From a virus (taxonomy: Duplodnaviria > Heunggongvirae > Uroviricota > Caudoviricetes): DNA of 64,000 nucleotides. The translations under genes and the position numbers were made by a program. The notes under the pieces are model-generated. The model saw nothing but the letters and a program-made list of their open reading frames with translations. It was not told where the DNA came from and did not search any database. The stretch is from IMG/VR virus record IMGVR_UViG_3300029904_000001, positions 1-64,000 of that record. One strand, given 5' to 3'. This document shows positions 15,783 through 51,762 of this stretch, piece after piece; the first letter of the stretch is position 1; each line of letters opens with the position of its first letter.

Positions 15783-16169
15783 AAATAAAATGGCCCCATG
15801 ATGGAAATAGGTAAATGTTTGCCCACACATTAGGTGTGTAATTGCTTCAAATTCGGTAAGAGTTAAATAAGGAGACATGTTAAACTATTAATTGTGTACA
15901 AATTAGATAGATAAACCCTCACGAATCCGCTCTCTAAGAAAGTCTAAGGTCCAACCCGCATTAATAGTAAATCTATTAACATAACTGTAAATTCAGTGCT
16001 AAAGTTGGATAGCTGATAATACCGAGCCAAGCCTAATTTTAAATTTAGGAAGGTGTAGAGACTTGACGGAGCACATATTTTATGTATGATAGTAAAGTCC
16101 AGCTCACAAACAATTATTTTAATGTTATATGACATATGTTTTATAATTGGATATGAAAATATCAGTGAG

Positions 16170-16312
16170 ATTGAGACATAAGGGTCTTAAAAACCCTTGA
16201 GGAGTAATCCTCGTCCCGATTCGACTTCGGGTGGGGTCACAACAACCATATTCACTTTAACTTTTTAACTAATTCAATGGAGACTGCTGAGAAGTACTCT
16301 CCATTTTTTATT
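16170..16312 (+). ncRNA. candidate small structured RNA (three consecutive hairpins ending in a strong terminator)
   Basis: AAGGGT-cttaaaa-ACCCTT, GAGGA-gtaa-TCCTC, CCCGA-ttcgact-TCGGG, then AATGGAGA..TCTCCATT followed by T8. No ORF. Confidence 0.3.
16276..16312 (+). terminator. rho-independent terminator
   Basis: 8-bp stem AATGGAGA/TCTCCATT followed by TTTTTTATTTT. Confidence 0.6.
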
Positions 16313-31457: not shown

Positions 31458-31558
31458 AAAAATTGTTCTATATTTGCAATGGTGTTAATGGTGTAAGTAG
31501 CTAGCATATTTCACTGTGACTGAAAAGGTATAATTTCGACTATTATTTAACACCCAAT

Positions 31559-31674
31559 ACGATACTTACAATAATTGATTAAAGGGAACTTACTGTCGCT
31601 GGTTCAATTCCAGCATTCTTCGCCATTTTATTGAAGAGTTAGCTCAGTTGGTAGAGCATAAGTTAAAAAGTATC
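31559..31674 (+). ncRNA. tRNA-like element with circularly permuted order (3' half then 5' half) enclosed by an 8-bp flanking helix; Y-RNA/YrlA-like candidate
   Basis: 31587-31624: ACTTA-CTGTC-GCTGG-TTCAATT-CCAGC-ATTCTTC-G-CCA (anticodon-stem 3' strand, T-arm, acceptor 3' strand, CCA). 7-nt spacer. 31632-31662: GAAGAGT-TA-GCTC-AGTTGGTA-GAGC-A-TAAGT (acceptor 5' strand, D-arm, anticodon-stem 5' strand). Acceptor 7/7 and anticodon stem 5/5 are complementary. Flanks CGATACTT (31559) and AAGTATCG (31667) pair. Confidence 0.35.
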
Positions 31675-31779
31675 GTTTTAAGAGATTTTTGTTTACAAAT
31701 TAAAACAATTAAGATTTTATGAAACTAATTAAAATTGGGGGGGGGCAAATAAGTAAATCCCCTAAAAAGGGGGTCATTT

Positions 31780-32379
31780 ATGATAGAAAATAAATGTCCT
31801 TCTGTTACAATCATTGATGCCTTTTTTGGTACAGTAAAAGACGGAGAGGTATATGATATATCACAACATTCGCTTCCTGAAGAATTTGGTATATATGAAC
31901 CTAGTACTGGATCTTCTGATAGTGGTTCTTTTGCTTTAATATATCCATCTGTTTCCAATTATATATCAAACGGATATATAAAAGAAGGAATTCTAATTAA
32001 CAAAAATGGGGTTTTTCGTTATTCGGCAACATCACGTCTTAATAATTCTGAGATGGAGTTAACTAGATTAAGTCGTAAAACGGTTACTCTTACAGATAGT
32101 TCAATCGGATCTACTTCGGTAAGTATTTCAATAAACCGTGATACTAAGGATGAGGTTTTAAACGCAGATGAAACTATAATTGATAATGGTAAACCAGGAT
32201 CACTGTACAACACAATGTGGATTGGAAAATTTGTACAGACTGTAAAACCAACTTCTGTTGGCGCATCAACTATATATTCAGCATTAGCGTTTGATCATAA
32301 TTATGTGTATCGCGCAAAATTAGCTGTTCCAGCCACAGTAACTTCGAGTTCTACTTTAACTTTTGTAAAAATTAGTTAA
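31780..32379 (+). CDS. Ser/Thr-rich structural-like protein embedded in tRNA island
   Basis: 199-aa ORF, no TGA. Confidence 0.4.
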   Translation: MIENKCPSVTIIDAFFGTVKDGEVYDISQHSLPEEFGIYEPSTGSSDSGSFALIYPSVSNYISNGYIKEGILINKNGVFRYSATSRLNNSEMELTRLSRKTVTLTDSSIGSTSVSISINRDTKDEVLNADETIIDNGKPGSLYNTMWIGKFVQTVKPTSVGASTIYSALAFDHNYVYRAKLAVPATVTSSSTLTFVKIS

Positions 32380-32414
32380 AATTATAGTATGACACTTATA
32401 AAATCAAATTTTAG

Positions 32415-32578
32415 ATTGATAATCTCGTGGTCAAGGGTTCAAGTCCCTTCTGGTGCTTCTTATGAAGTGTTAGTAGCTCAGCCGGTTAGAGCACGTATTA
32501 AGTGTCATTAAAACTTATATTAATTATGTTACTTACAAAAACAATTATAATTTTGGGTTCGAGTCCCAATTTTTCCAA
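32415..32578 (+). pseudogene. tRNA fragments / degenerate tRNA-like element (3' T-arm piece followed by 5' GAAGTGT..TAGCTCAG piece and a distal T-arm)
   Basis: AAGGG-TTCAAGT-CCCTT-CTGGTGC, then GAAGTGTTAGTAGCTCAGCCGGTTAGAGCAC..TAAGT..ACTTA..TTGGG-TTCGAGT-CCCAA. The halves do not form a consistent cloverleaf. Confidence 0.25.
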
Positions 32579-32684
32579 GTATGGGAGAAAAGGCGGAATT
32601 GGTTTACGCGCTTGTTTGCAGTACAAGTTTATTTAAAAGTAACATTTTTATATTTTAAATTAAGTTATATTAAAAATAACACAT

Positions 32685-32759
32685 TGATCCGTAGTTCAAT
32701 TTGGTTAGAACATCCGGCTTTGACCCGGAAGGTTGCTGAATCATACTCAGCCGGATCAA
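32685..32759 (+). tRNA. tRNA-Gln (anticodon TTG)
   Basis: TGATCCG/CGGATCA acceptor; D-stem GTTC/GAAC; anticodon stem TCCGG/CCGGA with loop CTTTGAC; T-stem GCTGA/TCAGC. Confidence 0.65.
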
Positions 32760-32876
32760 CTACGTTAATGTTTGACATTTTAATGTTACTTATAATCAAA
32801 TTATCGTTTTGGTTAATGTTTATTTAGGGTATATAAACTAAGTGGTTCAAATCCACATCAAGTAACATTTTTTATT

Positions 32877-32951
32877 GGTCCAGTAGTGTAACTGCGTAAC
32901 ACACCTCGCTTTCAATGAGGAGATTGTTGGGTTGGAGTCCCACTTGGATCA
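32877..32951 (+). tRNA. tRNA, probably Glu (anticodon TTC) with a non-canonical T-loop; alternative register would give TCA
   Basis: GGTCCAG..TTGGATC acceptor (2 GU); D-stem GTGT/ACAC; anticodon stem CCTCG/TGAGG with loop CTTTCAA; T-loop TTGGAGT. Confidence 0.4.
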
Positions 32952-33054
32952 CGATTTTTGGTTAGGATTTTAAACATGTTAACGATTATGATACTTATAA
33001 TAATATATTATAACGTGATCATTGGGATCTGGTATTAGTATAGTATCATTTTAA

Positions 33055-33137
33055 CCCTCTGTGGAGGAATTAGGCAGACTCGCTTGTCTTAGAAACAAGT
33101 GTCGAAAGACGTATCGGTTCAAGTCCGGTCAGAGGGA
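33055..33137 (+). tRNA. tRNA-Leu (anticodon TAG), type II with long variable arm
   Basis: CCCTCTG/CAGAGGG acceptor; anticodon stem CTTGT/ACAAG with loop CTTAGAA; variable arm; T-arm ATCGG-TTCAAGT-CCGGT; 83 nt. Confidence 0.65.
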
Positions 33138-33253
33138 CTAAAAAGTCACTTATAATAAAATTAATTTATTAAATTGAGGATCTATAGGTAAATTATTTTA
33201 TTATAATATGACTTATATTTAAAAGATTAATTAATATTTTTACAATAACTTAT

Positions 33254-33949
33254 ATGGGAAAAATTTTAACATATGAAGATATTGAAGCGGAAGGTGGTAC
33301 GATTAATCGTCGAACAACAAATCCTCCTGGTGAACCGGGCCTAAAATTTTATGAAGGTGATGCTCACTGTCCTGCTTCATCGGATTGATGGCGTATAACA
33401 AATGTAGCATGTCCTTATTCGGCAGCTAATAAACGTTGTACCGATACAACAACTATTGCGTTAAGTAGTCCAGCTTATTTTGGATATGCGTGATCTAATA
33501 GTACATCTAGCACAACCAAACAGTCTGAGAATTGTACTGTTACGTTTCCAGATGGTATTAATTATCAGATTAACTTTCCAGTCATGTCTAGCGTGCAATT
33601 TAGAGTAAATACTACTGGTTATAACGATATTATTATACAGTGAGGTAATCAGAATTTAAACTTAATTGCGCCACATAATTCTGATGGAGCATATTCGATT
33701 AACGAAATTTCAATCACATTTGATCAAAAGACCACTGGTACTTTTCAAGCATTTTATGGTTATTACTATCGGACTGTTTCAAATCAACTTTATATTGATG
33801 GGTTTACATCAATAGGATTTGCAAAAACAGTAAGTACTCCCACTGACACAATTTCTTTCCGTGGTATAACAATTCCAAAAATGCCGACAAATAAGAGTTA
33901 TGATGGAATTGTTTTAGTGATTGGTAATCCAAGTGAATTGAAATCTTAA
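33254..33949 (+). CDS. Thr/Ser-rich structural-like protein with three in-frame TGA=Trp, inside the tRNA island
   Basis: Continuous 231-aa frame ATG..TAA containing ..SSD-W-W-RITNVACPYSAANKRC.., ..YFGYA-W-SNS.., ..IIQ-W-GNQNLNL.. Confidence 0.5.
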
Positions 33950-34044
33950 TGTAAATAATTTAACAATTTTTAATATAAAAAGATACCTACAATCAATATT
34001 TTTTATGATTATTATGAAATAACTTAAATTTGGTATCTTAAGAT

Positions 34045-34203
34045 GATCCCATAGCTTAGTTGGTAAAGCACAGCGCTTTCTGGATGTAGTTCAGTTGGTA
34101 GAATGCAAATTTTGGGAATTTGTGGTCGCTGGATCGTGCCCAGCCATCCAGACTTTACTTGAAATTAACGCTGGGAGCGTGAGTTCGAGTCTCACTGGGA
34201 TCA
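34045..34203 (+). tRNA. split (nested) tRNA whose anticodon loop contains a complete tRNA-Pro; anticodon undetermined (TTT if the outer exons are joined at CTTT|TAA)
   Basis: 5' half GATCCCA-TA-GCTT-AGTTGGTA-AAGC-A-CAGCG-CTTT (34045-34079). 3' half ..TTAA-CGCTG-GGAGC-GTGAG-TTCGAGT-CTCAC-TGGGATC-A (34165-34203). Acceptor 7/7, D-stem 4/4, anticodon stem 5/5 and T-stem 5/5 are all complementary across the 73-nt insert. Confidence 0.45.
34080..34152 (+). tRNA. tRNA-Pro (anticodon TGG), located inside the anticodon loop of the outer tRNA
   Basis: CTGGATG/CATCCAG acceptor; TA; D-arm GTTC-AGTTGGTA-GAAT; anticodon stem CAAAT/ATTTG with loop TTTGGGA; T-stem GCTGG/CCAGC; T-loop ATCGTGC (A54/T58 swap); discriminator A. 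Confidence 0.6.
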
Positions 34204-34272
34204 CAACATAAAAATATAACACTGCAGGATGTCAGAAGTTGATATTTAACGTTGCGTTAAAATAATTTTAAG

Positions 34273-34342
34273 TGTGGGTAGAATTGGTATTCAAAAAGGT
34301 CTCATAAGCCTTTCTCCGCAGGTCCGATTCCTGCACCCGCAT
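34273..34342 (+). tRNA. compact tRNA with CAT anticodon (Met or Ile2-lysidine type), 4-nt D-loop
   Basis: TGTGGGT/ACCCGCA acceptor (1 GU); D-arm GAAT-TGGT-ATTC; anticodon arm AAAGGT-CTCATAA-GCCTTT; T-arm GCAGG-TCCGATT-CCTGC. Confidence 0.45.
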
Positions 34343-34353
34343 CAAATATTAAC

Positions 34354-34425
34354 GGGAAGGTCGTATAATGGTTATTACGGGTGGCTGTTAACCACTTTAT
34401 AGGTGTTCAATTCACCTCTTTCCCG
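34354..34425 (+). tRNA. tRNA-Asn (anticodon GTT)
   Basis: GGGAAGG/CTTTCCC acceptor (1 GU); anticodon stem GGTGG/CCACT with loop CTGTTAA; T-arm AGGTG-TTCAATT-CACCT. Confidence 0.6.
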
Positions 34426-34433
34426 CTCTAAAC

Positions 34434-34506
34434 AACTCTATAATTCAAGTGAATAGAATTTCACACTTCTAATATGAGTATACAGGCTTGAATCCTGTTG
34501 GAGTCA
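34434..34506 (+). tRNA. atypical tRNA-like gene with 4-nt D-loop and 8-nt anticodon loop TTTCACAC (TCA at its centre); identity unresolved
   Basis: AACTCTA..TGGAGTC acceptor (6/7); TA; D-arm ATTC-AAGT-GAAT; stem TAGAA/TTCTA closing loop TTTCACAC; T-arm ACAGG-CTTGAAT-CCTGT. Confidence 0.3.
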
Positions 34507-34519
34507 CAATTAAACAACT

Positions 34520-34838
34520 AGGGGTGTAGTGTAATAGTAGCACAGCGGTCTTTAGCTGATTAGCAATAATCAAATTGGAGCCTTATAGTAGAAATATTAT
34601 AAGTGAACACGATGATAACGTTGAAGCCTTAACAGATGAAGCTGATGGTAACGACGTCGGAATAGATTAAAAATCTAGCCGCGAGAGAGTAGATAATCGT
34701 GTACCTAAGTCGAAAGATATGGTAGTGACGTACTCCAGACTACAAACTTTTTAAGGTAGCGAAAGCTATAGTAGTAAAGCAAAACCGTAGACGGCACGTC
34801 CAAAGTGCCTAGTGAGGGGGCAGAACCTTCCACCCCTG
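34520..34838 (+). tRNA. intron-containing tRNA (type II, long variable arm); predicted spliced anticodon UCA if splice sites are CTT|...G|CAAA
   Basis: 5' exon AGGGGTG-TA-GTGT-AATAGTA-GCAC-A-GCGGT-CTT (34520-34552). 3' exon CAAA-ACCGT-[25-nt arm GGCAC-GTCCAAA-GTGCC]-GAGGG-GGCAGAA-CCTTC-CACCCCT-G (34780-34838). Acceptor 7/7 and anticodon stem GCGGT/ACCGT pair. 5' exon resembles cyanobacterial tRNA-Leu(UAA) exon 1. Confidence 0.35.
34553..34779 (+). other. candidate group I intron in tRNA anticodon loop (between positions 34 and 35)
   Basis: 227 nt. Begins after exon U and ends in G. Contains ..AAATTGGAGCCTTATAG.. and ..TAAGGTAGCGAAAGCTATAG.. resembling conserved elements of tRNA-Leu group I introns (..AATTGAGCCTTAAAG.., ..GTAGCGAAAGC..). 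P7-like AGACTAC/GTAGT. Confidence 0.3.
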
Positions 34839-34941
34839 CTATAAGACAATAAAGATGTCACAATCGCTATAAATTAATGTTGAGAGATTTTATTTAAAGA
34901 AGATTTCAGTGTGAGAGATTAATTAACTTAATGTTTTTATA

Positions 34942-35529
34942 GTGTTAAAAGATCAAATCTTAGAATTAAGAGCACAAGGAAAATCTTATAAAGAGATTTC
35001 TGAGATTCTTCATTGTTCTAAATCTACAGTTAATTATTGATGTAGTCCAGATGGAAAACAGAAAGTAAAAGAGCGTAAAGCAAGACAGCCTCGATGATGG
35101 ATTACATTGCAAAAGAAAGTAGATGATTTTAAGAGAAGAGAAAAATCTCCAAATCCTCGTACTCAAAGTCAGAAAGACTGACAAGGAAGATTTTTAATTA
35201 AAATAAAGTATTTTAAAGAACTTGCTTCAGTAAAAGTGAAAAATTTTACAGCTAAATCATTATTAGATAGTATAGAAGATCCAACTAAAATGAAATGTTA
35301 TTTAACTGGGAGAAATATTGATATAACTAAAGATGACTACCATCTTGATCATATTATGCCAGTTTCTAAAGGTGGATCTAGTTCTCTAGATAATTTGGGT
35401 ATCACTTGTCCACAAGCAAATATGTCAAAAAGTGATATGACAGTTGATGAATATTTATCTTTATGTAAAGAAGTGTTAGAGAATTTTGGATATACTGTAA
35501 CTAAAAAAAATAACACACCTCCTCATTAA
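34942..35529 (+). CDS. HNH homing endonuclease with N-terminal HTH; four in-frame TGA=Trp; free-standing next to intron-containing tRNA
   Basis: GTG start; ..ILELRAQGKSYKEISEILHCSKSTVNY-W-CSPDGK..RQPR-W-W-ITLQ.. then HNH core DDYHLDHIMPVSKGGSSSLDNLGITCPQANMSKSD. Confidence 0.5.
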
Positions 35530-35716
35530 TATTTATACATGATGTTTTAATTAAATGACCACATGTTACTTACAATGATTTATTATTACTAATATTTTTA
35601 TTAATCGGTCATTACTAATTGGCATCCCGAGATGCAGAGATTCCTATATCTCTTAAAAAAGATTTCTATATCTTACTAAAATAGGACTGCTGGTCACAGT
35701 ATTAAGTAACATATCT

Positions 35717-35795
35717 GCCTTCTTAGCTCAACTGGTTAGAGTGTATCACTTTCTGGATGTAGTTCAGTTGGTAGAACATCTGGTTTAGGCGATAA
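35717..35795 (+). pseudogene. degenerate duplicate of the nested-tRNA unit (outer 5' half + CTTT + start of inner CTGGATG.. tRNA), lacking 3' partners
   Basis: GCCTTCT-TA-GCTC-AACTGGTTA-GAGT-G-TATCA-CTTT-CTGGATGTAGTTCAGTTGGTAGAAC.. The shared segment CTTTCTGGATGTAGTTCAGTTGGTAGAA matches 34076-34103 at 28/28 nt. Confidence 0.3.
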
Positions 35796-35965
35796 ACTAA
35801 TTTTTTGTTCTTATTTATTTTAAACAAAATAAAAAGGTGGCTCAGTTCTATAATCTTACTAGAAAAATTCTTCAGAGAATCAGAAAGAGATCATAATCAG
35901 GGGGTCACTACTTCAAGCCCAGCTAGGTCCACAATATTTATTTTTTTATTTATTATTTTTAAAAT

Positions 35966-36427
35966 ATGAAAAAGATCATTCTATTTCTTTTAGTAATATT
36001 GAGTTCTAATACTATTTTTGCGCAACTTAATATTACATCTAGAAGCACACAACCTAAGAAAGTAATGTCTGTTCGTCCAACGTATAGTCAGTTATGGTAT
36101 CAGATTGAAGAATCTGATACTTTATACTTTTTTAGTATCAATACTGACAATCAGTTTGACGATCCTATTTATTTTGCAATAGGTTACAGAAAAAATTCTG
36201 CTATTCAGTCAGTCGAAGATCTCATAGAAATTGCAGAAAAAGGAAATAAAAATAATGAAACTATAAGTGTTCCAGGTATGTACACAGATGATAGAATTTA
36301 TATTAGTTCTGGTGCTATTTTTGGAATAAAAGGTTTAATTCTAACTCAGAGAGGTCATGCAGGAGTTTCTAATCTCAATTTAGGAGAGCTTAGAAGAGTT
36401 TCTGAAAAACTTAAGAGTCAAGAATAA
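35966..36427 (+). CDS. secreted protein (signal peptide)
   Basis: MKKIILFLLVILSSNTIFAQ signal peptide; 153 aa. Confidence 0.45.
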   Translation: MKKIILFLLVILSSNTIFAQLNITSRSTQPKKVMSVRPTYSQLWYQIEESDTLYFFSINTDNQFDDPIYFAIGYRKNSAIQSVEDLIEIAEKGNKNNETISVPGMYTDDRIYISSGAIFGIKGLILTQRGHAGVSNLNLGELRRVSEKLKSQE

Positions 36428-36474
36428 GTTTAATTTGGATTGCTCGGATAGTGGAGAAGATGGTTTCATTATTA

Positions 36475-36546
36475 GCAGCATTAGTATAACGGTTATTATG
36501 TCAGACTTCCAATCTGAATATGGGTGTTCGATTCACCTATGCTGCT
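36475..36546 (+). tRNA. tRNA-Gly (anticodon TCC)
   Basis: GCAGCAT/ATGCTGC acceptor; anticodon stem TCAGA/TCTGA with loop CTTCCAA; T-arm GGGTG-TTCGATT-CACCT. Confidence 0.65.
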
Positions 36547-36835
36547 CTCTTGATACTTACAATACTATAAATGGAATTTAATAATTCGTATGTAGCGGCA
36601 TTCAGTATCAATCTTAATGTTTAATTTAAATGTTAATGTTATGAAAAGAGTAATTAAAATTTTGAAGAAAGCATTTGATAAATGGTCTAACAGCCAATCA
36701 ATGCTTATCACAGGATCTATTCCTGTTAAGGGATAATCCTTTTACTCTTTTTATATAATATCGCTTAATTATTTATGATGCTTACAATAATATTAAATCA
36801 ATGAACTTTTAATTCATCCAGATAAAGCATCATTA

Positions 36836-41645: not shown

Positions 41646-41707
41646 AACGCAAAAGTAGAGGCTGGAGAATATTTACTTATGGATTATAAGTACAAATCTT
41701 AACTAAT

Positions 41708-43342
41708 ATGTTAAATAAAGAAGTAAAGTTTTATAATGAAGCAAGAGAAGGAATGCTCAAAGGTATAAATCTCTTAGCAGATGCAGTTAAAGTAACTCTT
41801 GGTCCAAAAGGTCGAAGTGTTATTATAACTGAACCCAATGAGATTCCACATGTTACAAAAGATGGAGTTACTGTTGCTAAAGCTATTAAACTTGCGGATC
41901 AATATCAAGATGCAGGAGCTCAGTTGATTAAAGAAGCAGCTGTTCGCACAGTTCGTGAAGTTGGAGATGCCACGTCAAGTGCCACAGTTCTCGCTCAAGC
42001 TTTTATCAATAATCTTTATAAAGAAATACAAGCAGGAGCAAATCCAATTAAACTTAAAAAGGGATTTGATTATGCTATTGATGAAGTTATATATTATATA
42101 AAAGAACACGCTCGTCCAATTTCTGATTCTGATATTAAATATGTTGCAACTATATCTGCAAATAATGATGAAGAGATTGGAGAATTACTATCAGATGCAT
42201 TTTCTAAAGTTGGAAGACAAGGTGTAATTACCGTTGAAGAATCTTCTAATTCTAAAACTTCTGTAAATGTAGTAATGGGAATGCAGTTTGATAGAGGATA
42301 CGAAGCTCCTCATTTTGTAACCGATGAAGAGAAAGATCAGTGTGTATTGGAAGATCCTTACATATTTATTACCGATCACAAGATTCAATTGACTAGAGAT
42401 CTTTTAAATATTCTCGAACCTTTAGCTAGAGAGCATAAGAGTCTTTTAATTATAGCACAAGAATATGATTCTGAAGTTATTGAGAATTTAAAACTTAATA
42501 AACTTCAAGGAACTCTAAAATGTTGTGCTATTAAATGTCCGTCTATGGGAGAATATAGAAAAGAAGTTCTTCAAGATATAGCAATTGTAACTGATGGTAC
42601 TTATCTAAGTTATGATTCCGGACTTGAGGTTTCCGATTGTTCTCTCGATATGCTTGGACAGGCTAAAAGAATTATCGTAACTAAAGATACTACTACGATT
42701 GTTGGAGGCGTTGGTAGTCAATCAATAGTTGATTCTAGAGTTAGAGAGATTGAGAATAAGTTAGAGACTATAAAAGATTCTCAAATGGATGGTGAATTCT
42801 ATCGAGATTTCTTAAAGAGACGAATTGCTGCACTTACAGGCGGAATATGTCAAATTAAAGTAGGTGGAAAGACTGAAATAGAAATGAAAGAAACTAAGGA
42901 TAGAATTGATGATGCTGTAGCAGCTTGTTATGCAGCTATTGAAGAAGGCATTATTGCTGGTGGAGGATTGGATTTCTATAAATGTGGATATGAGATAGTT
43001 TCTGATCCTGATAGTAAATGTATATTTAATGATGAAGTGGAAATTTGGTCTGGATTTAAAGCATGTATAGAAAGTCTTCCGATTATCATGCAAACCATTT
43101 GTGATAATGCTGGTATAGATTCAAAAGAAGTATTTGAAAAACTTCCAAAAGATGCAGATAAATGGATTGGATTTGATGCTAATCAAGAAGACTATGTTGA
43201 TATGTATCAAACTGGTATAGTTAATCCAGCTAAAGCTGATAGACTTGCAATTGAACATGCAGCTTCCATAACAGATTTATTTTTAACTACGGATTGTATA
43301 ATTGTCCCATTACAGATCATGGACATTAATATTGGAAACTAA
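41708..43342 (+). CDS. groL: chaperonin GroEL (Cpn60)
   Basis: 544 aa with GroEL-type motifs (..GPKGRSVII.., ..AAVEEGIIAGGGL..) and a typical domain order. Confidence 0.7.
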   Translation: MLNKEVKFYNEAREGMLKGINLLADAVKVTLGPKGRSVIITEPNEIPHVTKDGVTVAKAIKLADQYQDAGAQLIKEAAVRTVREVGDATSSATVLAQAFINNLYKEIQAGANPIKLKKGFDYAIDEVIYYIKEHARPISDSDIKYVATISANNDEEIGELLSDAFSKVGRQGVITVEESSNSKTSVNVVMGMQFDRGYEAPHFVTDEEKDQCVLEDPYIFITDHKIQLTRDLLNILEPLAREHKSLLIIAQEYDSEVIENLKLNKLQGTLKCCAIKCPSMGEYRKEVLQDIAIVTDGTYLSYDSGLEVSDCSLDMLGQAKRIIVTKDTTTIVGGVGSQSIVDSRVREIENKLETIKDSQMDGEFYRDFLKRRIAALTGGICQIKVGGKTEIEMKETKDRIDDAVAACYAAIEEGIIAGGGLDFYKCGYEIVSDPDSKCIFNDEVEIWSGFKACIESLPIIMQTICDNAGIDSKEVFEKLPKDADKWIGFDANQEDYVDMYQTGIVNPAKADRLAIEHAASITDLFLTTDCIIVPLQIMDINIGN

Positions 43343-44055: not shown

Positions 44056-44122
44056 AAATTTGGAATTGTGATATTTTTTATGTATATTGCATAAATAAAT
44101 TAAATCACTAAAAATTAATTTT

Positions 44123-45100
44123 ATGTCAACGCAATTACATCAATTAGAAAAAGACTATATTTTGGAAAATTATTCTACGTTTGGTCCAAGAATAGTATCA
44201 CAAAAATTACAAAGATCAGAAAGTACTATTATTTCTTTTGCAAAACGAAATAAATTGAATCTAAAAAAAGATCCTAACTTAACTTTTGAAGATGCTCCAG
44301 ATTTTAAATATTGTTTAGATTTTGAAAAATGTTTTGATCAGCTTACTCCAGAATTAACCTATTGATTGGGATTTTTTTGAGCAGATGGTATAAACAATAA
44401 AGGTTGTTTGTCTATCGAAATAGTTAGAGAAGATGGAGAAAATTTACAAGATTTATTTTTAAATATTTTTCCGTTTAAAATAACATATAGAGAATCACCA
44501 AATCGAAAACCACAAATGCGTTTTTATGTATATAATACAAATATATCTCAAAAATTGGTAGATTTAGGAAAATATCCACATTCTTTTGAATCTCATAAAA
44601 AAATATTAAATTTTTTACAAACAGATGAATTAATTAAATATTTCTTACGAGGTTTAATCGATGGAGATGGTAATTTTTATTTAAATAATTCTGATAAATA
44701 CGGACAATTTACACTGGCATCTAATGTAAATCAAGATTGATCCACATTAATGAATCTATTAAAAGATTTTAATCCGTTTGTAACTATTTCGAAAAGAAAA
44801 ACTGGAAACAGTTCTGTTTTAAGAATTACTGGAAAAGAAAATCTTTGTAATTTTATTAAATATTTAGAATACGATACAATAAATATTGGATTACATCGAA
44901 AACAACAAAAAGCGTTAGAAATTGTTAAAATGTACAACGAACCAAAGCCACATCGGACAATTTATCAATATTCCAAAAGTAAAGAACTATTGAATACATT
45001 TGATTCAATAAAAGATGCAGCAGAATCACTAAATGTAAAAAAATCAGCAATTTCTAATTGTTTATGTAAAATATCAAAAACCGCTTTTGGATACATTTGA
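44123..45100 (+). CDS. LAGLIDADG homing endonuclease (double-motif) with HTH; three in-frame TGA=Trp
   Basis: One frame 44123-45100. Motif 1 ..ELTY-W-LGFF-W-ADGINNKG.. (W from TGA). Motif 2 ..KYFLRGLIDGDGNFYL... Track ORFs 44123/44408/44750 are joined by TGAs. Confidence 0.55.
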
Positions 45101-45146
45101 TCATATACACCATTGTAATGAAATTAAATCCTATAACTTATTTTAA

Positions 45147-46215: not shown

Positions 46216-46676
46216 TTTATACTGATGGATCTGCACAACCAAGTCGAAATACAGGTGGATTTTCAGCTGTATTTTGTAAAAATGGTAAATGTGTAGATAA
46301 AATATATCGAGGATATACGAATACTACAAATAATCGTATGGAATTACGTGCAGTTGTAGAAGCATTAAAATGATTCAAAGATCCAACAGAAGTAACTATT
46401 GTCTCAGATTCGCAATATGTTGTAAATAGTGTTAATGGGAAGTATTGCTTTAAATGAATTAAAGAAAATGATTTATCTAAAAAGAATCTTGATTTGTGAT
46501 TCGAACTTATCAATCTACTAGAATATCATACTGTAACTTTTAAGTGGGTAAAAGGACATAATAATCACTCTATGAACGAATATGCCGATAGACTAGCTTG
46601 TCATAGTAGTCAGTGTATGAACTTAAAAGATGATATTATTCAAGATGTATCTTTATTAAAAAATAAATGTGATTAG
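46194..46676 (+). CDS. rnhA: ribonuclease HI; five in-frame TGA=Trp
   Basis: MSKEK-W-IVYTDGSA..TNNRMELRAVVEALK-W-..VTIVSDSQYV..NLDL-W-FELI..VTFKWVKGHNNHSMNEYADRLA. TGA occupies the conserved DLW tryptophan. Confidence 0.65.
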
Positions 46677-47479
46677 TTTACGTACATATTTCACCTTCAA
46701 ATAAAGTTTACGTTGGAATTACTTCCAAAACTGCTAAACAGCGTTGAAGGAATGGTAAAGGATATAAACGACACCAACCTTTATTTTATAACGCAATTCT
46801 TAAGTACGGTTGAGATAATTTTATACATAAAGTTTTATTTAATAATATAACCGAGAAAGATGCAAAATTAATAGAAATAGATTTAATCTATTATTATAAA
46901 AAGATTGGAAAAAGTTACAATATTACCGATGGAGGTGATGGTACGCGTGGACGTCCTAATTCTGAACATGCGAGACGATTAATTAGCGAGGCTCAAAAGA
47001 AACGTCCGATAGAACAATATACTTTAGATGGTACATATGTTCAAACGTTTGAATCCGTTGTTGCAGCTAGTAAAGCAATTGGAAAAGCGATTTATCAAAA
47101 TAATCATTGATATGCAGCAAGAGGTTTAAGTAGGTCTTGTAACGAAGGAACTGTAGCTTACGGTTTTCGATGAAAATATGTAGATCAAAAAGAGTTAAAA
47201 ATTGCGTTAAATAAGTCTACAAAACCTATTGTACAACTTAGTTTAGAGGGAGAATTTATTAACAAATTTGATTCTGGTGTTCATGCTGAATGTCAAACAG
47301 GTATTGACCATAAACTAATCTCTGCTTGTTGCACAGGTAAACGTAAAACAACAAAAGGATACCGATGAATGTTTTATAATGATTATCTTAATACAATGTC
47401 GCAATGTCTTAATTTACCCGAAGATCCAATTAATATTAAATGAAATGATACAATCAATAAAAATTCTCAAAGTGGGTAA
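46667..47479 (+). CDS. GIY-YIG homing endonuclease with NUMOD-like DNA-binding region; six in-frame TGA=Trp
   Basis: ATG overlaps the RNase H stop. M-W-LVYVHISPSNKVYVGITSKTAKQR-W-RNGKGYKRHQPLFYNAILKYG-W-DNF.. (GIY..YIG) then ..RRLISEAQKKRPIEQYTLDGTYVQTFESVVAASKAIGKAIYQ.. Confidence 0.55.
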
Positions 47480-48898: not shown

Positions 48899-49749
48899 AT
48901 GACAGATTTTGGCGATACCTTAGCAAAAGCAATAGAACTAGGAAAGGAGAATGCAAAGACAGATATTAATAGACTTGTATGAAAGTTTAAAAATGGTGTA
49001 GAAAAGCGTCTTATGGATATGACAGAGGAAGAGCTACAAAAAGCTTATAATCATTGTTACAGTATGCTTTATAATACATCAAGATCTGTACCTGGTAAGT
49101 ATACAGTTAAGAAAATTATAGAGAGAACTTACGATAATATCAATGCAGAACTTTTCTTACGTTATATATTATGTGAATGCAATATTGATATCTTAAAGAC
49201 AAATAAGGACGTTTTTGATTTTGTTGTTAAGAATAGAGCTGTTATGGGTGTAAAAGATAGTGATTCTGTTACATCTATGTTTAGTAATGTTCCAACCATT
49301 TTTGAAAAGGTGACTATTGATAGGCTTTTGTCTGCATGTTTTGATAAACTAGATGCTCTAAATCGTAAAATTATATCTGATAAGTTTATTATTGCTCAGG
49401 GTATCTGACTGACCAAAGAAGAGAAAGAAGATCTCACGGAGTATGATTCTAATGGAAAGCTTCGTGATAGAATGGATGTGATTAGAGAAAGACTTATTCT
49501 TAATAATGTTAAACTTCGTATAGATAGAAAGGGTTTAAGTTATTCAGAATTTAGAAGTCTTGTTAAATTAGATCAATATCCAAAAATATCTAGTCTTCCA
49601 ACAGCAACACTTAAGCTTCTGCGAGATAAGATACTATTGCTACTTGATTATGATTTAAATTATCATATAAATAAGTGGGAAACTCTTATGCAGAATCTAG
49701 TTAAAGTAGCTGAGAAGAAAGGATATAAATTAACACAACCTGATGCCTA
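48899..49749 (+). CDS. hypothetical protein (283 aa) joined across two TGA=Trp
   Basis: Track ORFs 49013 and 49472 share a frame with ATG 48899 (..INRLV-W-KFKNG.. and ..AQGI-W-LTKEEKED..). Confidence 0.45.
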
Positions 49750-51762
49750 ATGATTTATTTAGTAACTAATAACCAATTATTATTTCCTAACGAATTATAT
49801 AAAATAATAACTGTTGAGGAAAGTTTGGAATTATTAAATCCCCTTAGTGAAGTTGGAACCGATACTGAAACTGAAGGGATGGATCCACATACTAAAAAAT
49901 TGTTATTAGTTCAGTTAGGAGATTATAATAATCAAGTTGTAATTGATTGTAGAACTGTTGATATACGTAAATATAAAGAGTTTTTAGAAAGTGATCGACT
50001 GTTTTTACTTTGGAACGCGAAGTTTGATTTAAAGTTTTTTCTTAAACATGAAATTGTAATTAGGAATGTATATGATGGATTTCTTGCAGAAAAATTACTA
50101 TGATTGGGTTATCCTGCAGGAATTCACTCAATGTCATTAAAAGCAGCTGGAGAAAAATATTGTGGAGTTGAATTAGATAAATCTATTCGAGGTAAAATCA
50201 TATGGTCTAAAACTCTAACAGATGATATTATTGAATATGGAGCTAATGATGTCAAATATCTAGCTAAAATTAAAGAAAAACAACATCAAGAATTGCAAAA
50301 TAAAGGACTTCTTAAAGCAATTGCATATGAAAATAAATTTTGTCCTGTTTTGGCTTATACTGAATTTTGTGGAGTTAAATTAGATGAAACAAAATGGAAA
50401 GAAAAAATGGCTAAAGATAGAATAAAATTTGATACTGCTTTAAATAGTCTAAATAATTGGGTAATTGAGAATTATCCAGAATATTCTTACGTTAATCCTC
50501 AAGGAGATTTGTTTTCAGGATTTGATGATACTCCTAAATGTACAATTAATTGGGCTAGTCCAAAGCAAGTTATTCCACTTCTAGAGAAAATTGGATTTAA
50601 ACTTGATACTTTTGATAAGAAAACAAAAGCCAAAAAGAAATCTGTAGGAGCTGATATTATAGAACCGCAAAAAAATCTAAGTCCTATTGCTCCTATATAC
50701 TTAGAATACAAAGCAGCAGAGAAACTAATAGGAACTTATGGTCAAAATGTGCTAGATCAGATTAATCCAGAGACTGGGAGAATTCACACTAACTTTAATC
50801 AACTGGGAACAGACACCGGGAGGTTAAGTTCAGGTGGGAAGGATAAAGAAAATGAAATAGAGTATATAAACTTCCAAAACTTTCCTAGAGATACAGAGAC
50901 AAGAGCGTGTTTTGTAGCAGAATCTGGTAATAAATGAATTAGCTGCGATTACTCAGCTCAAGAATCTAGAATTATTGGAGAATTATCTTCAGATAAAGCA
51001 ATCCTCGATCTATTTAATTATGGTTGTGGAGATATGCATTCTCTAGTTGCAAAAATGGCTTACCCAGATATAATTGGAGATTGTCCTATTGAAGAAATAA
51101 AGCATAAGTTTAAACATTGGCGTCAAGAAGCTAAAGGAATTGAATTTGCTATAAACTATGGTGGAGATGCTAATACCATCAAATCAAATAAGAATATTCC
51201 AATGGAAGAAGCTCAAAAAATCTACGATGATTATATGAAAGGTTTTTCTGGAGTAAAGACTTATCAAGATAGACAAAGAAAATTTGTAATGGATCATGGG
51301 TATATTTTATTAAATCCCAAAACTGGACATAAAGCTTTTATTTATGATTATGAAGAACTATCAGCAATAAAAGCAAGATTTAATGGACAATTCTGAGAAA
51401 CATATAGAGAATATAAGAAATCTAATCCAGATTCAGCTATAGTTTCTGAAGTAAGACACTATTTTAAACGAAAATCAGCGTCTGAGAAGCAATCTATAAA
51501 CTATCCTTGTCAGGCCACTGGCGCACTTTGCTTTAAATTAGCCTCTATTTATATATATCAATATTTACTTGATAATAATTTATTATTTAAAGTAAAATTA
51601 TGTATTCCTGCTCATGATGAATGAAATGTTGAAGCTCCAGAAGAAATTTGTGATCAAATATCTGAAATGGTTCAAGATAGCATGAAAAAAGCAGGGGCAT
51701 GATTTTGCAGACAAGTAGAGTTACCTGCAGAAGCAGAAGTTGATACTTGTTGAAGACATTAA
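49750..51762 (+). CDS. polA: DNA polymerase I family A (3'-5' exonuclease + polymerase domains); multiple in-frame TGA=Trp
   Basis: Exo I GTDTETEGMD; Exo III YGANDVKYL; motif A ..RIHTNFNQLGTDTGRLSSGG..; motif B RQEAKGIEFAINYGG; ..SINYPCQATGA..; motif C ..CIPAHDE... All in one frame (49750, 50104, 51034 plus tail to 51762), joined by TGAs. Confidence 0.7.

Follow-up and report, generated by a model that had tools for sequence, protein, structure and literature searches.

How do phages that have turned UGA from a stop into a sense codon read it when their genomes appear to hold no tRNA for the task? The large "Zeta" group of crAss-like phages is intron-rich and often recoded, and its recoding agrees imperfectly with the presence of detectable suppressor tRNAs, which its recoded members often lack (Yutin 2021, PMC7886860); Borges 2021 found suppressors in only 35–40% of phages with TGA or TAG reassigned, and a 2025 study of the Zeta group makes the same point about missing suppressors. 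We took up this question at a locus in a 64,000-nucleotide (nt) stretch of a Caudoviricetes virus (IMG/VR record IMGVR_UViG_3300029904_000001, positions 1 to 64,000), which is referred to below, in its entirety, as the window. The phage fits the large Zeta group: its family-A DNA polymerase (PolA) is 54–58% identical to those of the crAss-like phages cr106_1, IAS virus and PhiCrAssBcn, and the relatives of its neighbour proteins are found on 168–177 kb contigs. Many of the long open reading frames (ORFs) of the window contain in-frame TGA codons, for which a sense reading is needed. The locus is a tRNA gene split in two at 34520–34838, and very probably codes for a phage opal-suppressor tRNA of the tryptophan type, with the anticodon UCA, in which a small group I intron without an ORF separates U34 from C35.

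The break in this gene falls between anticodon positions 34 and 35, and the 227-nt insert (34553–34779), which holds no ORF, is preceded by a U and ends in a G. The constituents of the locus are as follows:

34520..34552, + strand: tRNA exon 1, with the acceptor 5′ strand AGGGGTG, U8-A9, the D arm GTGT-AATAGTA-GCAC, A26, the anticodon-stem 5′ strand GCGGT, and C32, U33 and U34
34553..34779, + strand: predicted group I intron, ORF-less, of the IC3-like bacterial/phage tRNA-intron type, recognized by covariation and by profiles built without the window; terminal G at 34779
34780..34838, + strand: tRNA exon 2, with C35, A36, A37 and A38, the anticodon-stem 3′ strand ACCGT, an extra arm, the T arm GAGGG-GGCAGAA-CCTTC (34814–34830), the acceptor 3′ strand CACCCCT and G73
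34793..34809, + strand: the extra arm GGCAC-GUCCAAA-GUGCC in the variable region, with a loop U33-C-C-A-A37-A38 as in tRNA-Trp(CCA)
34942..35529, + strand: free-standing HNH endonuclease gene with an N-terminal helix-turn-helix; 195 amino acids with TGA read as Trp; start codon uncertain

Thus laid out, the two exons, the insert and the ORF noted in an earlier sequence-only reading of this locus are all present where it had placed them. Exon 2 reads CAAA-ACCGT-AGAC-GGCAC-GTCCAAA-GTGCC-TAGT-GAGGG-GGCAGAA-CCTTC-CACCCCT-G, without an encoded CCA, while related loci share the exon 1 pattern AGGRGCT-TA-GTGT-AAYGGTA-GCAC-A-GCGGT-CTT. When joined, the exons amount to 92 nt, whose minimum-free-energy (MFE) fold (-35 kcal/mol, z=-2.96, 46% of the ensemble) is a cloverleaf with one additional arm. 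Its acceptor stem has 7 bp, its D stem 4 bp, and its anticodon and T stems 5 bp each; both of the latter are closed by loops of 7 nt, that of the anticodon arm with U33. The MFE fold of the 319-nt precursor keeps every tRNA arm and adds nested helices within the insert, among which P2, P3, P4, P5, P6, P8 and P9 of the intron are recovered. The same 319 nt recur unchanged in an ENA assembly of independent name, on a contig of 174 kb, and part of them is found in another assembly.

The position of the exon junction, and with it the anticodon, can be read from related loci, for which we use handles of the type L140. An IMG/VR scan recovered 45 viral loci, the majority on 100–177 kb contigs, that share the junction between the intron 3′ end and exon 2, the conserved 3′ block being directly followed by CAAAAC. 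Exon 1 was found in 37 of these, and upon in-silico joining at CTT|CAAA, ARAGORN calls tRNA(tca) in 34 of the 37 spliced products. The spliced sequence of L140 is identical at 93 of 94 positions to an uninterrupted gene in L319; therefore, the junction is fixed for this intron family, and intron-plus and intron-minus alleles exist side by side, which is a hallmark of a mobile intron. Furthermore, the guide and exon 2 change together, with TTG/CAA in the UCA tRNAs versus TTT/AAA in the Leu tRNAs. The L140/L319 junction and the match of the window's P10 guide TTG to CAA hence support a spliced loop CUUCAAA with the anticodon UCA in the window, as had been proposed from the sequence; the predicted spliced junction is GCGGUCUUCAAAACCGUAGAC, and the predicted ligated exons read ...GCGGUCUU|CAAAACCGU....

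As to the insert itself, a structure of 50 pairs, comprising P1–P8 (P7 as a pseudoknot), P10, and a 3′ helix that encloses a hairpin capped by GAAA, was tested on an alignment (A1) of the window intron with six other introns of UCA tRNAs, five of tRNA-Leu and two of tRNA-Asn. Its elements in the window are:

34578..34582, + strand: internal guide sequence GAGCC, which pairs with GG(U)CUU of exon 1 (34547–34552); the resulting helix, P1, places a U.G wobble at the 5′ splice site
34575–34577, + strand: P10 guide TTG, which pairs with CAA of exon 2 (34780–34782)
34557..34572, + strand: extra hairpin TGATTA-GCAA-TAATCA in the P1 loop, an insertion relative to the other A1 members that is found in the window copy only and is paired in the MFE fold
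34583..34602, + strand: P2 hairpin TTATAGTA-GAAA-TATTATAA; both partners vary in 7 of its 8 pairs, and pairing is kept in 91% of cells
34608–34613 with 34696–34701, + strand: P3, which encloses P4, P5 and P6/P6a
34618–34623 with 34652–34657, + strand: P4, within P3
34626–34628 with 34647–34649, + strand: P5, within P3
34658–34681, + strand: P6/P6a, within P3
34687–34691 with 34731–34735, + strand: P7 pseudoknot GAGTA/TACTC, enclosing the P3 3′ strand and P8; 97% paired
34702–34705 with 34721–34724, + strand: P8, within P7
34739–34743 with 34771–34775, + strand: 3′-domain helix ACTAC/GTAGT, enclosing a GAAA-capped hairpin; 100% paired
34757–34768, + strand: hairpin TAGC-GAAA-GCTA, inside the 3′-domain helix; 100% paired

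Standard pairs occupy 90.6% of the cells of A1 as against 72.3% in shuffled alignments, none of 500 of which reaches the observed value, and slid partners give at most 43%; 34 of the 50 pairs change on both sides. P4–P6 are 92–98% paired and show compensatory changes. P3 is paired in fewer cells (64%) on account of the alignment register, its variants being CACGAT/ATCGTG in the window, CATGAT/ATCATG in L159 and TTCCGT/ACGGAA in L005. Likewise, P7 is GAGTA/TACTC in the window versus GACTA/TAGTC in the Leu introns, the 3′ helix occurs as ACTAC/GTAGT or ACCAC/GTGGT, and its hairpin as TAGC/GCTA or TAAC/GTTA. All 13 sequences with letters at the 5′ splice site have the U.G pair, with the two neighbouring P1 pairs covarying, and the terminal G (34779) is invariant across A1. 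In P10, the UCA tRNAs (G-C) and the Leu tRNAs (U-A) differ at the first pair, the remaining two pairs of this helix being weak.

Profile searches point in the same direction. An nhmmer profile of 13 related tRNA introns, with the window excluded, matches 34546–34787 with E=8.8e-36, and one built from tRNA-Leu and tRNA-Asn introns only still matches the window with E=2.2e-15. In a BLAST search against GenBank phages, positions 34734–34777 are 88.6% identical to the tRNA-Leu intron of LR756501, which bears out the resemblance to the tRNA-Leu(UAA) group I intron noticed in the sequence-only reading. Given the covariation from P1 to P10, the U.G pair, the terminal G and these profile matches, the insert may be taken to possess the structural features that define a group I intron, with catalysis predicted from them. 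Pattern scans of IMG/VR with the conserved 3′ block further recovered related introns in tRNA-Leu(UAA), tRNA-Asn(GUU), a tRNA with a CAU anticodon and protein-coding genes. In several relatives (L140, L141, L143, L148, L156, L161 and L163), the intron contains an ORF that matches PF11645 (2e-17) and PDB 2OST (1e-3), which we take to represent the PD-(D/E)XK family, that of the homing endonuclease I-Ssp6803I from the tRNA-fMet intron of Synechocystis, while in L339 an HNH ORF is encoded inside the intron.

Which amino acid would this tRNA insert? In E. coli, tRNA-Trp combines A1-U72 and G73 with the anticodon arm CCGGU-CUCCAAA-ACCGG; the discriminator G73 and the first pair A1-U72 are tRNA-Trp identity elements in both E. 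coli and B. subtilis, and the main determinant for bacterial tryptophanyl-tRNA synthetase (TrpRS) is the anticodon C34-C35-A36. The spliced tRNA of the window displays A1-U72, G73 and the Trp-type anticodon arm GCGGU-CUUCAAA-ACCGU, and shares the D arm GTGT-AATAGYA-GCAC and the T loop GGCAGYA with the phage tRNA-Trp(CCA) genes of L187 and L189. Its decoding arm carries U34-C35-A36, as a reader of UGA must, rather than CCA; a CCA triplet properly placed within a loop is confined to the extra arm. That the phage recodes UGA, as had been supposed, is evident from the many long ORFs with in-frame TGA, and the sense in which it is read is indicated by PolA (49729–51762), at six TGA positions of which 86–117 of 117 homologues have W, with the proviso that some of these homologues may have been translated with code 4. 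The homologues in PDB are too distant to tell the meaning of the TGAs, and the closer ones were used. In a 2025 preprint, mass spectrometry of 13 phage tRNA(UCA)s tested in an E. coli extract found Trp to be inserted by all 13 (PMC12636597). The sequence-only reading had regarded exon 1 and the long variable arm as Leu/Ser-like and the inserted amino acid as uncertain. The former does not hold: the acceptor, D and anticodon arms are Trp-like, and the additional arm is a 5-bp hairpin with a 7-nt loop. The uncertainty is likewise much reduced by the Trp-type tRNA and the alignment of TGA with W. On these comparisons, the tRNA is of the Trp type, and we infer that it is charged with Trp and decodes UGA.

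The extra arm, which places a second anticodon-type arm in tandem with the first, is the most novel element of the locus. Such a hairpin is present in 16 of the 21 distinct exon 2 types of the intron-bearing UCA tRNAs, a set collected by a pattern blind to this region. A second scan, which added intron-less genes and required TCCAA, and is thereby biased for the extra-arm loop, found a hairpin with an NUCCAAA loop in 59 of 61 distinct tRNA(UCA)s (CUCCAAA in 29, GUCCAAA in 23). Across these arms, 50 distinct stems surround an invariant UCCA in the loop, and the stem covaries, with 94.5% of cells paired versus 56% in shuffles and all five pairs changing on both sides; many reproduce GGU-CUCCAAA-ACC, as in genuine phage tRNA-Trp(CCA). 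All 17 distinct ordinary phage tRNA-Trp(CCA) genes, each of 74–76 nt, lack the arm, and at least six short tRNA(UCA)s recovered by an unbiased 14-mer scan do so too, indicating that it is common rather than universal. Between the extra arm and the T stem lies a variable loop of the canonical 4 nt, which is NGGU in most relatives, and between the UCA arm and the D stem lies the canonical single nucleotide A26; hence, either could in principle stack as the anticodon arm. One short, arm-less tRNA(UCA) with A73 (L375:4401–5530) lies directly upstream of a gene for a class I W/Y aminoacyl-tRNA synthetase (PF00579, 6e-65), and a synthetase of the PF00579 type was found in none of the other 452 sequences searched, including the window. 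This single case is suggestive of the extra arm being dispensable where the phage brings its own TrpRS. At somewhat less than even confidence, our proposal is that in a large group of phage opal suppressors, that of the window among them, the tandem arms split identity from decoding, in that the UCA arm would read UGA and the CCA arm would act as a decoy that lets the host TrpRS, which ordinarily requires C34, charge the suppressor without a phage synthetase; the RNA may flip between two stacking conformers in the process. A literature search that covered sources other than subscription journals returned no publication on a CCA-loop extra arm or on an intron-split suppressor. The NUCCAAA arm was observed in the window and among the loci L019, L137–L180 and L232–L328.

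The gene adjoining the tRNA is a genuine free-standing HNH endonuclease gene, as supposed in the sequence-only reading: its product matches HNH_4 (PF13395; 5e-7, 30.0 bits against a cut-off of 22) and HNH (PF01844; 3e-6, 27.6 bits against a cut-off of 21.4), contains HTH_23 (8e-7, above the Pfam cut-off), and displays the motif DHIMPVSKGG...LDNL...QANMSK. Thus, the core of that reading, i.e., a group I split at 34/35, a UCA anticodon and an adjoining free-standing HNH gene, is upheld by the 45 loci, the covariation and Pfam. What does not stand is the specific tie of the HNH gene to the intron. In other phages, genes for homologues with 41–50% identity directly adjoin tRNA(UCA) genes. Together with the window, the L139 group and L168 make up three independent lineages that have the intron, in which the HNH gene is ~25–100 nt downstream of exon 2 (~25 nt downstream of the split gene in the L139 group and L168); in L273 and L314, it immediately precedes a tRNA(UCA) gene without an intron. 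Since both kinds of gene are adjoined, this HNH family is tied to tRNA(UCA) genes, on either side and with or without an intron, rather than to the intron. The HNH gene contains in-frame TGAs at 35038, 35095 and 35179, and therefore its own translation needs the suppressor.

Several observations weigh against the locus being a functional intron-split suppressor of this kind. P1 of the UCA tRNAs requires a bulged or mismatched U at -4. ARAGORN in its default, intron and relaxed modes, and also when given the spliced sequence, makes no correct call for the split gene of the window, and an Rfam search over 34400–35000, at the gathering score and at E<=10, found neither Intron_gpI (RF00028) nor a tRNA at the locus. 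The T loop is without U54, U55 and A58, and the D loop has AG for GG18-19, making for an unorthodox elbow whose compatibility with function we infer from its conservation; code 4 may already have been used in translating some of the PolA homologues behind the TGA/W agreement. Finally, close relatives with 87–92% identity of the neighbour proteins are without the cassette at the same site, suggesting that it is accessory here or resides elsewhere in the genomes of the relatives. In L336–L338:3118–4001, where the 153-aa neighbour protein is 92% identical, the site holds a free-standing PD-(D/E)XK gene and a tRNA-Ile(GAT); in the 87% relatives L339–L341:4480–5330, the gene for the 153-aa protein is closely followed by a tRNA-Leu(UAA) whose intron encodes an HNH ORF with TGA codons. 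Such variation among relatives is as expected of mobile DNA.

The failures of the standard tools can in part be accounted for. ARAGORN detects eight other tRNAs in the cluster at 31482–36547 and fails on this one because of its T loop GGCAGAA. The Rfam negative, for its part, carries no weight because the same search (E<=1), like ARAGORN, also misses a canonical tRNA-Leu(UAA) intron, namely that of L001:1308–1600 (LR756501.1, a 735-kb huge phage), in which the tRNA is split between U34 and A35 by a ~207-nt insert. Of the checks proposed along with the sequence-only reading, the one with the Rfam Intron_gpI and tRNA models thus gives no match at the window and equally none at this canonical intron, and the examination of identity elements of the spliced tRNA revealed the Trp-type features given above. 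Intron-split phage tRNAs are probably under-annotated in general; a study of Patescibacteria (PMC13011429) ran a dedicated bacterial tRNA-intron model besides RF00028. No GenBank phage was matched by megablast with 25 kb of the window, and two scans of JGI metagenomes for the window-type exon 2 returned nothing, leaving L153, L462 and the identical ENA copies as the only window-type relatives. About ten more intron-split tRNA(UCA) genes, within L453–L473, are found on contigs of genome bins assigned to Bacillota, Bacillales, Bacteroidaceae, Ezakiella, Lactobacillus johnsonii and Peptococcaceae, which are probably phage or prophage contigs; L462, with the window-type T loop GGCGGCA, belongs to the Bacteroidaceae bin.

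The elbow deserves particular consideration. In the D loop AAUAGUA and the T loop GGCAGAA, the canonical elbow nucleotides are mostly missing, with only G19 and C56 kept. That this T loop is atypical, as had been remarked from the sequence, is correct, but it is shared. It recurs in the split relatives L153 (GGCAGTA) and L462 (GGCGGCA), and a T-arm scan found GGCAGYA, without T54, Psi55 and A58, in the ordinary phage tRNA-Trp(CCA) genes L187, L189, L196, L197 and L226. The D loop AATAGYA, with AG for GG18-19, is present in L187 and L189, the latter of which also has the D stem GTGT/GCAC. The recurrence of the same variant in these genes argues that the odd T loop is a lineage trait rather than decay. 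This unorthodox elbow is recurrent among phage Trp tRNAs.

An alternative that builds on these anomalies is that the locus is a decaying tRNA pseudogene with a dead intron, the real suppressor being encoded elsewhere in the genome or provided by the host. The rejection of the spliced sequence by ARAGORN, the missing elbow nucleotides, the lack of the cassette at the same position in close relatives and the partly degenerate look of a second split tRNA at ~15792–16240 would all fit it. We nevertheless consider it quite improbable, as all five tRNA helices and every intron helix are intact, the cloverleaf is the MFE structure, and the compensatory P3 and P7 pairs and the invariant core blocks are kept in the window intron. 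Furthermore, the same type of T loop is found in L153 and L462, which differ in their acceptor and second-arm stems, as well as in intact phage tRNA-Trp(CCA) genes, and neither ARAGORN nor Rfam detects another tRNA(UCA) in the 64-kb window, which contains the tRNA cluster. Marginally less probable still is a functional tRNA that inserts another amino acid, be it Ser (given the long arm and G73), selenocysteine (UCA, the long arm and the "SeC" label) or Gly (as in code 25). The long extra arm, G73 and the UCA anticodon, and the initial Leu/Ser-like impression, speak for it, but the six PolA TGA sites align with W and not with S, G or C, the acceptor, D and T arms match those of phage tRNA-Trp(CCA) genes, and the published phage tRNA(UCA)s all inserted Trp (PMC12636597). 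The individual candidates can also be rejected on structural grounds. The tRNA of the window has 7/5 acceptor/T geometry, a 4-bp D stem and a 7-nt D loop. These rule out bacterial tRNA-Sec, which has 8/5 acceptor/T stems and a 6-bp D stem with a 4-nt loop; the "SeC" label that ARAGORN puts on relatives stems from the anticodon tca alone. Class II variable stem-loops have a short 3–5-nt loop and 0–2 unpaired bases at the base, whereas the extra arm has a conserved 7-nt loop and typically 2–7 unpaired bases on each side (59 distinct sequences), which rules out a Ser, Leu or Tyr arm. A tmRNA-like reading was considered and rejected.

The tandem arms raise the further alternative that it is the CCA-loop arm that decodes, in which case this would be an ordinary UGG-reading tRNA-Trp with the UCA arm as a tolerated insertion at position 26, or, in a variant, an RNA with two conformers in which either arm reads. 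The canonical 4-nt variable loop leading to the T stem and the frequent reproduction of the genuine tRNA-Trp stem and loop are what one would expect of it. We give it as little credence as decay, seeing that the UCA arm, too, has a canonical junction at A26 and is the most conserved in sequence (GCGGU-CUUCAAA-ACCGU), that the phage requires a UGA reader and no other is detectable in the window, and that none of the 17 ordinary phage tRNA-Trp(CCA) genes has a second arm. A far more serious contender, to which we accord somewhat less than an even chance, concerns only the HNH gene: it might be unrelated to the intron and encode a selfish, free-standing endonuclease for which tRNA(UCA) or tRNA-cluster DNA is the target or merely the vehicle, irrespective of introns. 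This would account for the homologues that in L273 and L314 immediately precede tRNA(UCA) genes devoid of an intron, for the different endonuclease family, PD-(D/E)XK, encoded by introns of relatives while the window intron is ORF-less, and for the free-standing PD-(D/E)XK gene with tRNA-Ile at the equivalent site in close relatives. Against this stands the location of a homologue ~25–100 nt 3′ of exon 2 in three independent intron-bearing lineages, an arrangement that would match "collaborative homing", in which free-standing endonucleases reside beside intron-containing genes.

Under the favored explanation, that of an intron-split, Trp-type opal suppressor, the following sequence of events can be envisaged. 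The precursor would be transcribed together with the tRNA cluster, and the intron would fold into P1–P9 with the P3/P7 pseudoknot. Guanosine would then attack after the P1 U.G pair, P10 would align exon 2, and the intron would be released with its terminal G, joining CUU to CAAA in a self-splicing reaction. After end processing and CCA addition, the tRNA would be charged by the host TrpRS, the CCA loop of the extra arm possibly supplying the synthetase determinant lost when C34 of the decoding arm became U. The mature tRNA is then expected to read UGA as Trp in the recoded genes, including the neighbouring HNH gene, whose product is likely a homing endonuclease of the selfish, free-standing kind, carried along with tRNA(UCA) genes.

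Among characterized introns, the closest parallel is the tRNA-Leu(UAA) intron of cyanobacteria and plastids, along with its phage copies (LR756501), which is inserted at the same point (U34/35) as that of the window. Both are small and ORF-less, with a U.G splice pair, a terminal G and a P10 adapted to exon 2, and they share sequence blocks (88.6% identity over the 3′ domain; profile E=2.2e-15). They differ in the host gene, which is tRNA-Leu as opposed to a Trp-type UCA suppressor, in P7 (GACUA/UAGUC in the tRNA-Leu(UAA) introns versus GAGUA/UACUC in the window), and in two additions to the window intron, an insertion in P5 and the GCAA-capped hairpin within the P1 loop. The IC3 introns of Azoarcus tRNA-Ile(CAU) and Agrobacterium tRNA-Arg are comparably compact (~200 nt) and interrupt the anticodon loop, but differ in the host tRNA, the peripheral elements and the 3′ domain; the P3–P8 core of the Azoarcus intron scores 43 bits against the intron-family profile, which serves as a lead only. 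Self-splicing has been demonstrated for these introns and is predicted for that of the window. With the Synechocystis tRNA-fMet intron (I-Ssp6803I), the relatives of the window intron share the family of the internal ORF; unlike it, the window copy has no internal ORF and is accompanied by an unrelated HNH gene outside the tRNA. In Patescibacteria, "missing" tRNA-Asn and tRNA-Asp were likewise explained by group I introns in the anticodon loop (PMC13011429, 2026), and the tRNA-Asn introns of the window's family in L010 and L015 lie at 35/36 as in that study. That work, in contrast, deals with cellular genomes and sense-codon tRNAs: its text is without "suppressor", "UCA" and "Trp", and "phage" appears once, in the reference list.

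The suppressor tRNA(UCA)s of TGA-recoded phages (crAss-like, Agate, Jade) are likewise phage-encoded readers of UGA, for which Trp is inferred and which are presumably charged by TrpRS. The published ones (Yutin 2021; Borges 2021/22; PMC12636597) are uninterrupted and come from tRNAscan-type tools, unlike the gene in the window, which contains an intron and escapes both ARAGORN and Rfam. For the extra arm, the nearest analogs are anticodon-arm mimics of the E. coli thrS operator type (PMC9976931), which, like the arm in the window, are stem-loops that copy a cognate anticodon loop outside the decoding position, where a synthetase with the anticodon among its identity elements could recognize it. 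The known mimics belong to mRNAs or viral tRNA-like structures and are regulatory, whereas this one is inside a tRNA, beside a different, real anticodon. What is new here is hence the combination of two known entities, the anticodon-loop group I intron and the phage suppressor tRNA: the lineage of the tRNA-Leu(UAA) intron has colonised a tRNA that switches the genetic code, which places the intron upstream of late-gene translation. A suppressor that is split by an intron and missed by both ARAGORN and Rfam offers a concrete answer to at least part of the missing-suppressor gap. If the extra arm is truly a synthetase decoy, it would represent a new way of building tRNA identity and a design principle for engineered suppressor tRNAs; decoy and intron together, if true, would explain both the apparently missing suppressors and the hijacking of an unmodified host synthetase in TGA-recoded phages.

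The window also contains other features of related character. The second split tRNA (15792–16240, + strand), parts of which look degenerate, starts with GGCCCCA-TG-ATG in its 5′ part. In its 3′ part, the Leu(UAA) anticodon arm AGGGT-CTTAAAA-ACCCT is intact, and a variable arm of some length, a T arm, the acceptor strand TGGGGTC and A73 are present. The insert of ~355–365 nt lies in the D-arm/D-loop region and not in the anticodon loop; its middle (15960–16131) matches P4–P7 of the tRNA-intron profile (E 1e-10 to 1e-14), and the conserved 3′ block is absent. ARAGORN calls a tRNA-Leu(taa) when 15802–15816 is joined to 16165–16175. The insert could be a group I intron that occupies a non-canonical position in the tRNA, or else one that has decayed. 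Another tRNA (34434–34506, + strand; Rfam tRNA, 39.7 bits) with the anticodon UCU (Arg) lies 13 nt upstream of the split suppressor gene and is missed by ARAGORN at its default settings.

Two homing-endonuclease-like ORFs are situated close to replication genes: one at 44099–45118 (+ strand) with LAGLIDADG and NUMOD1 domains and four in-frame TGAs, and the other at 46667–47479 (+ strand) with NUMOD1, an N-terminus that by eye resembles GIY-YIG, and seven in-frame TGAs. Selfish endonucleases are thus among the most recoded genes of the window. An ORF at 41690–43342 (+ strand) that, judging by eye from its translation, codes for a full-length GroEL-like chaperonin is free of TGA codons.

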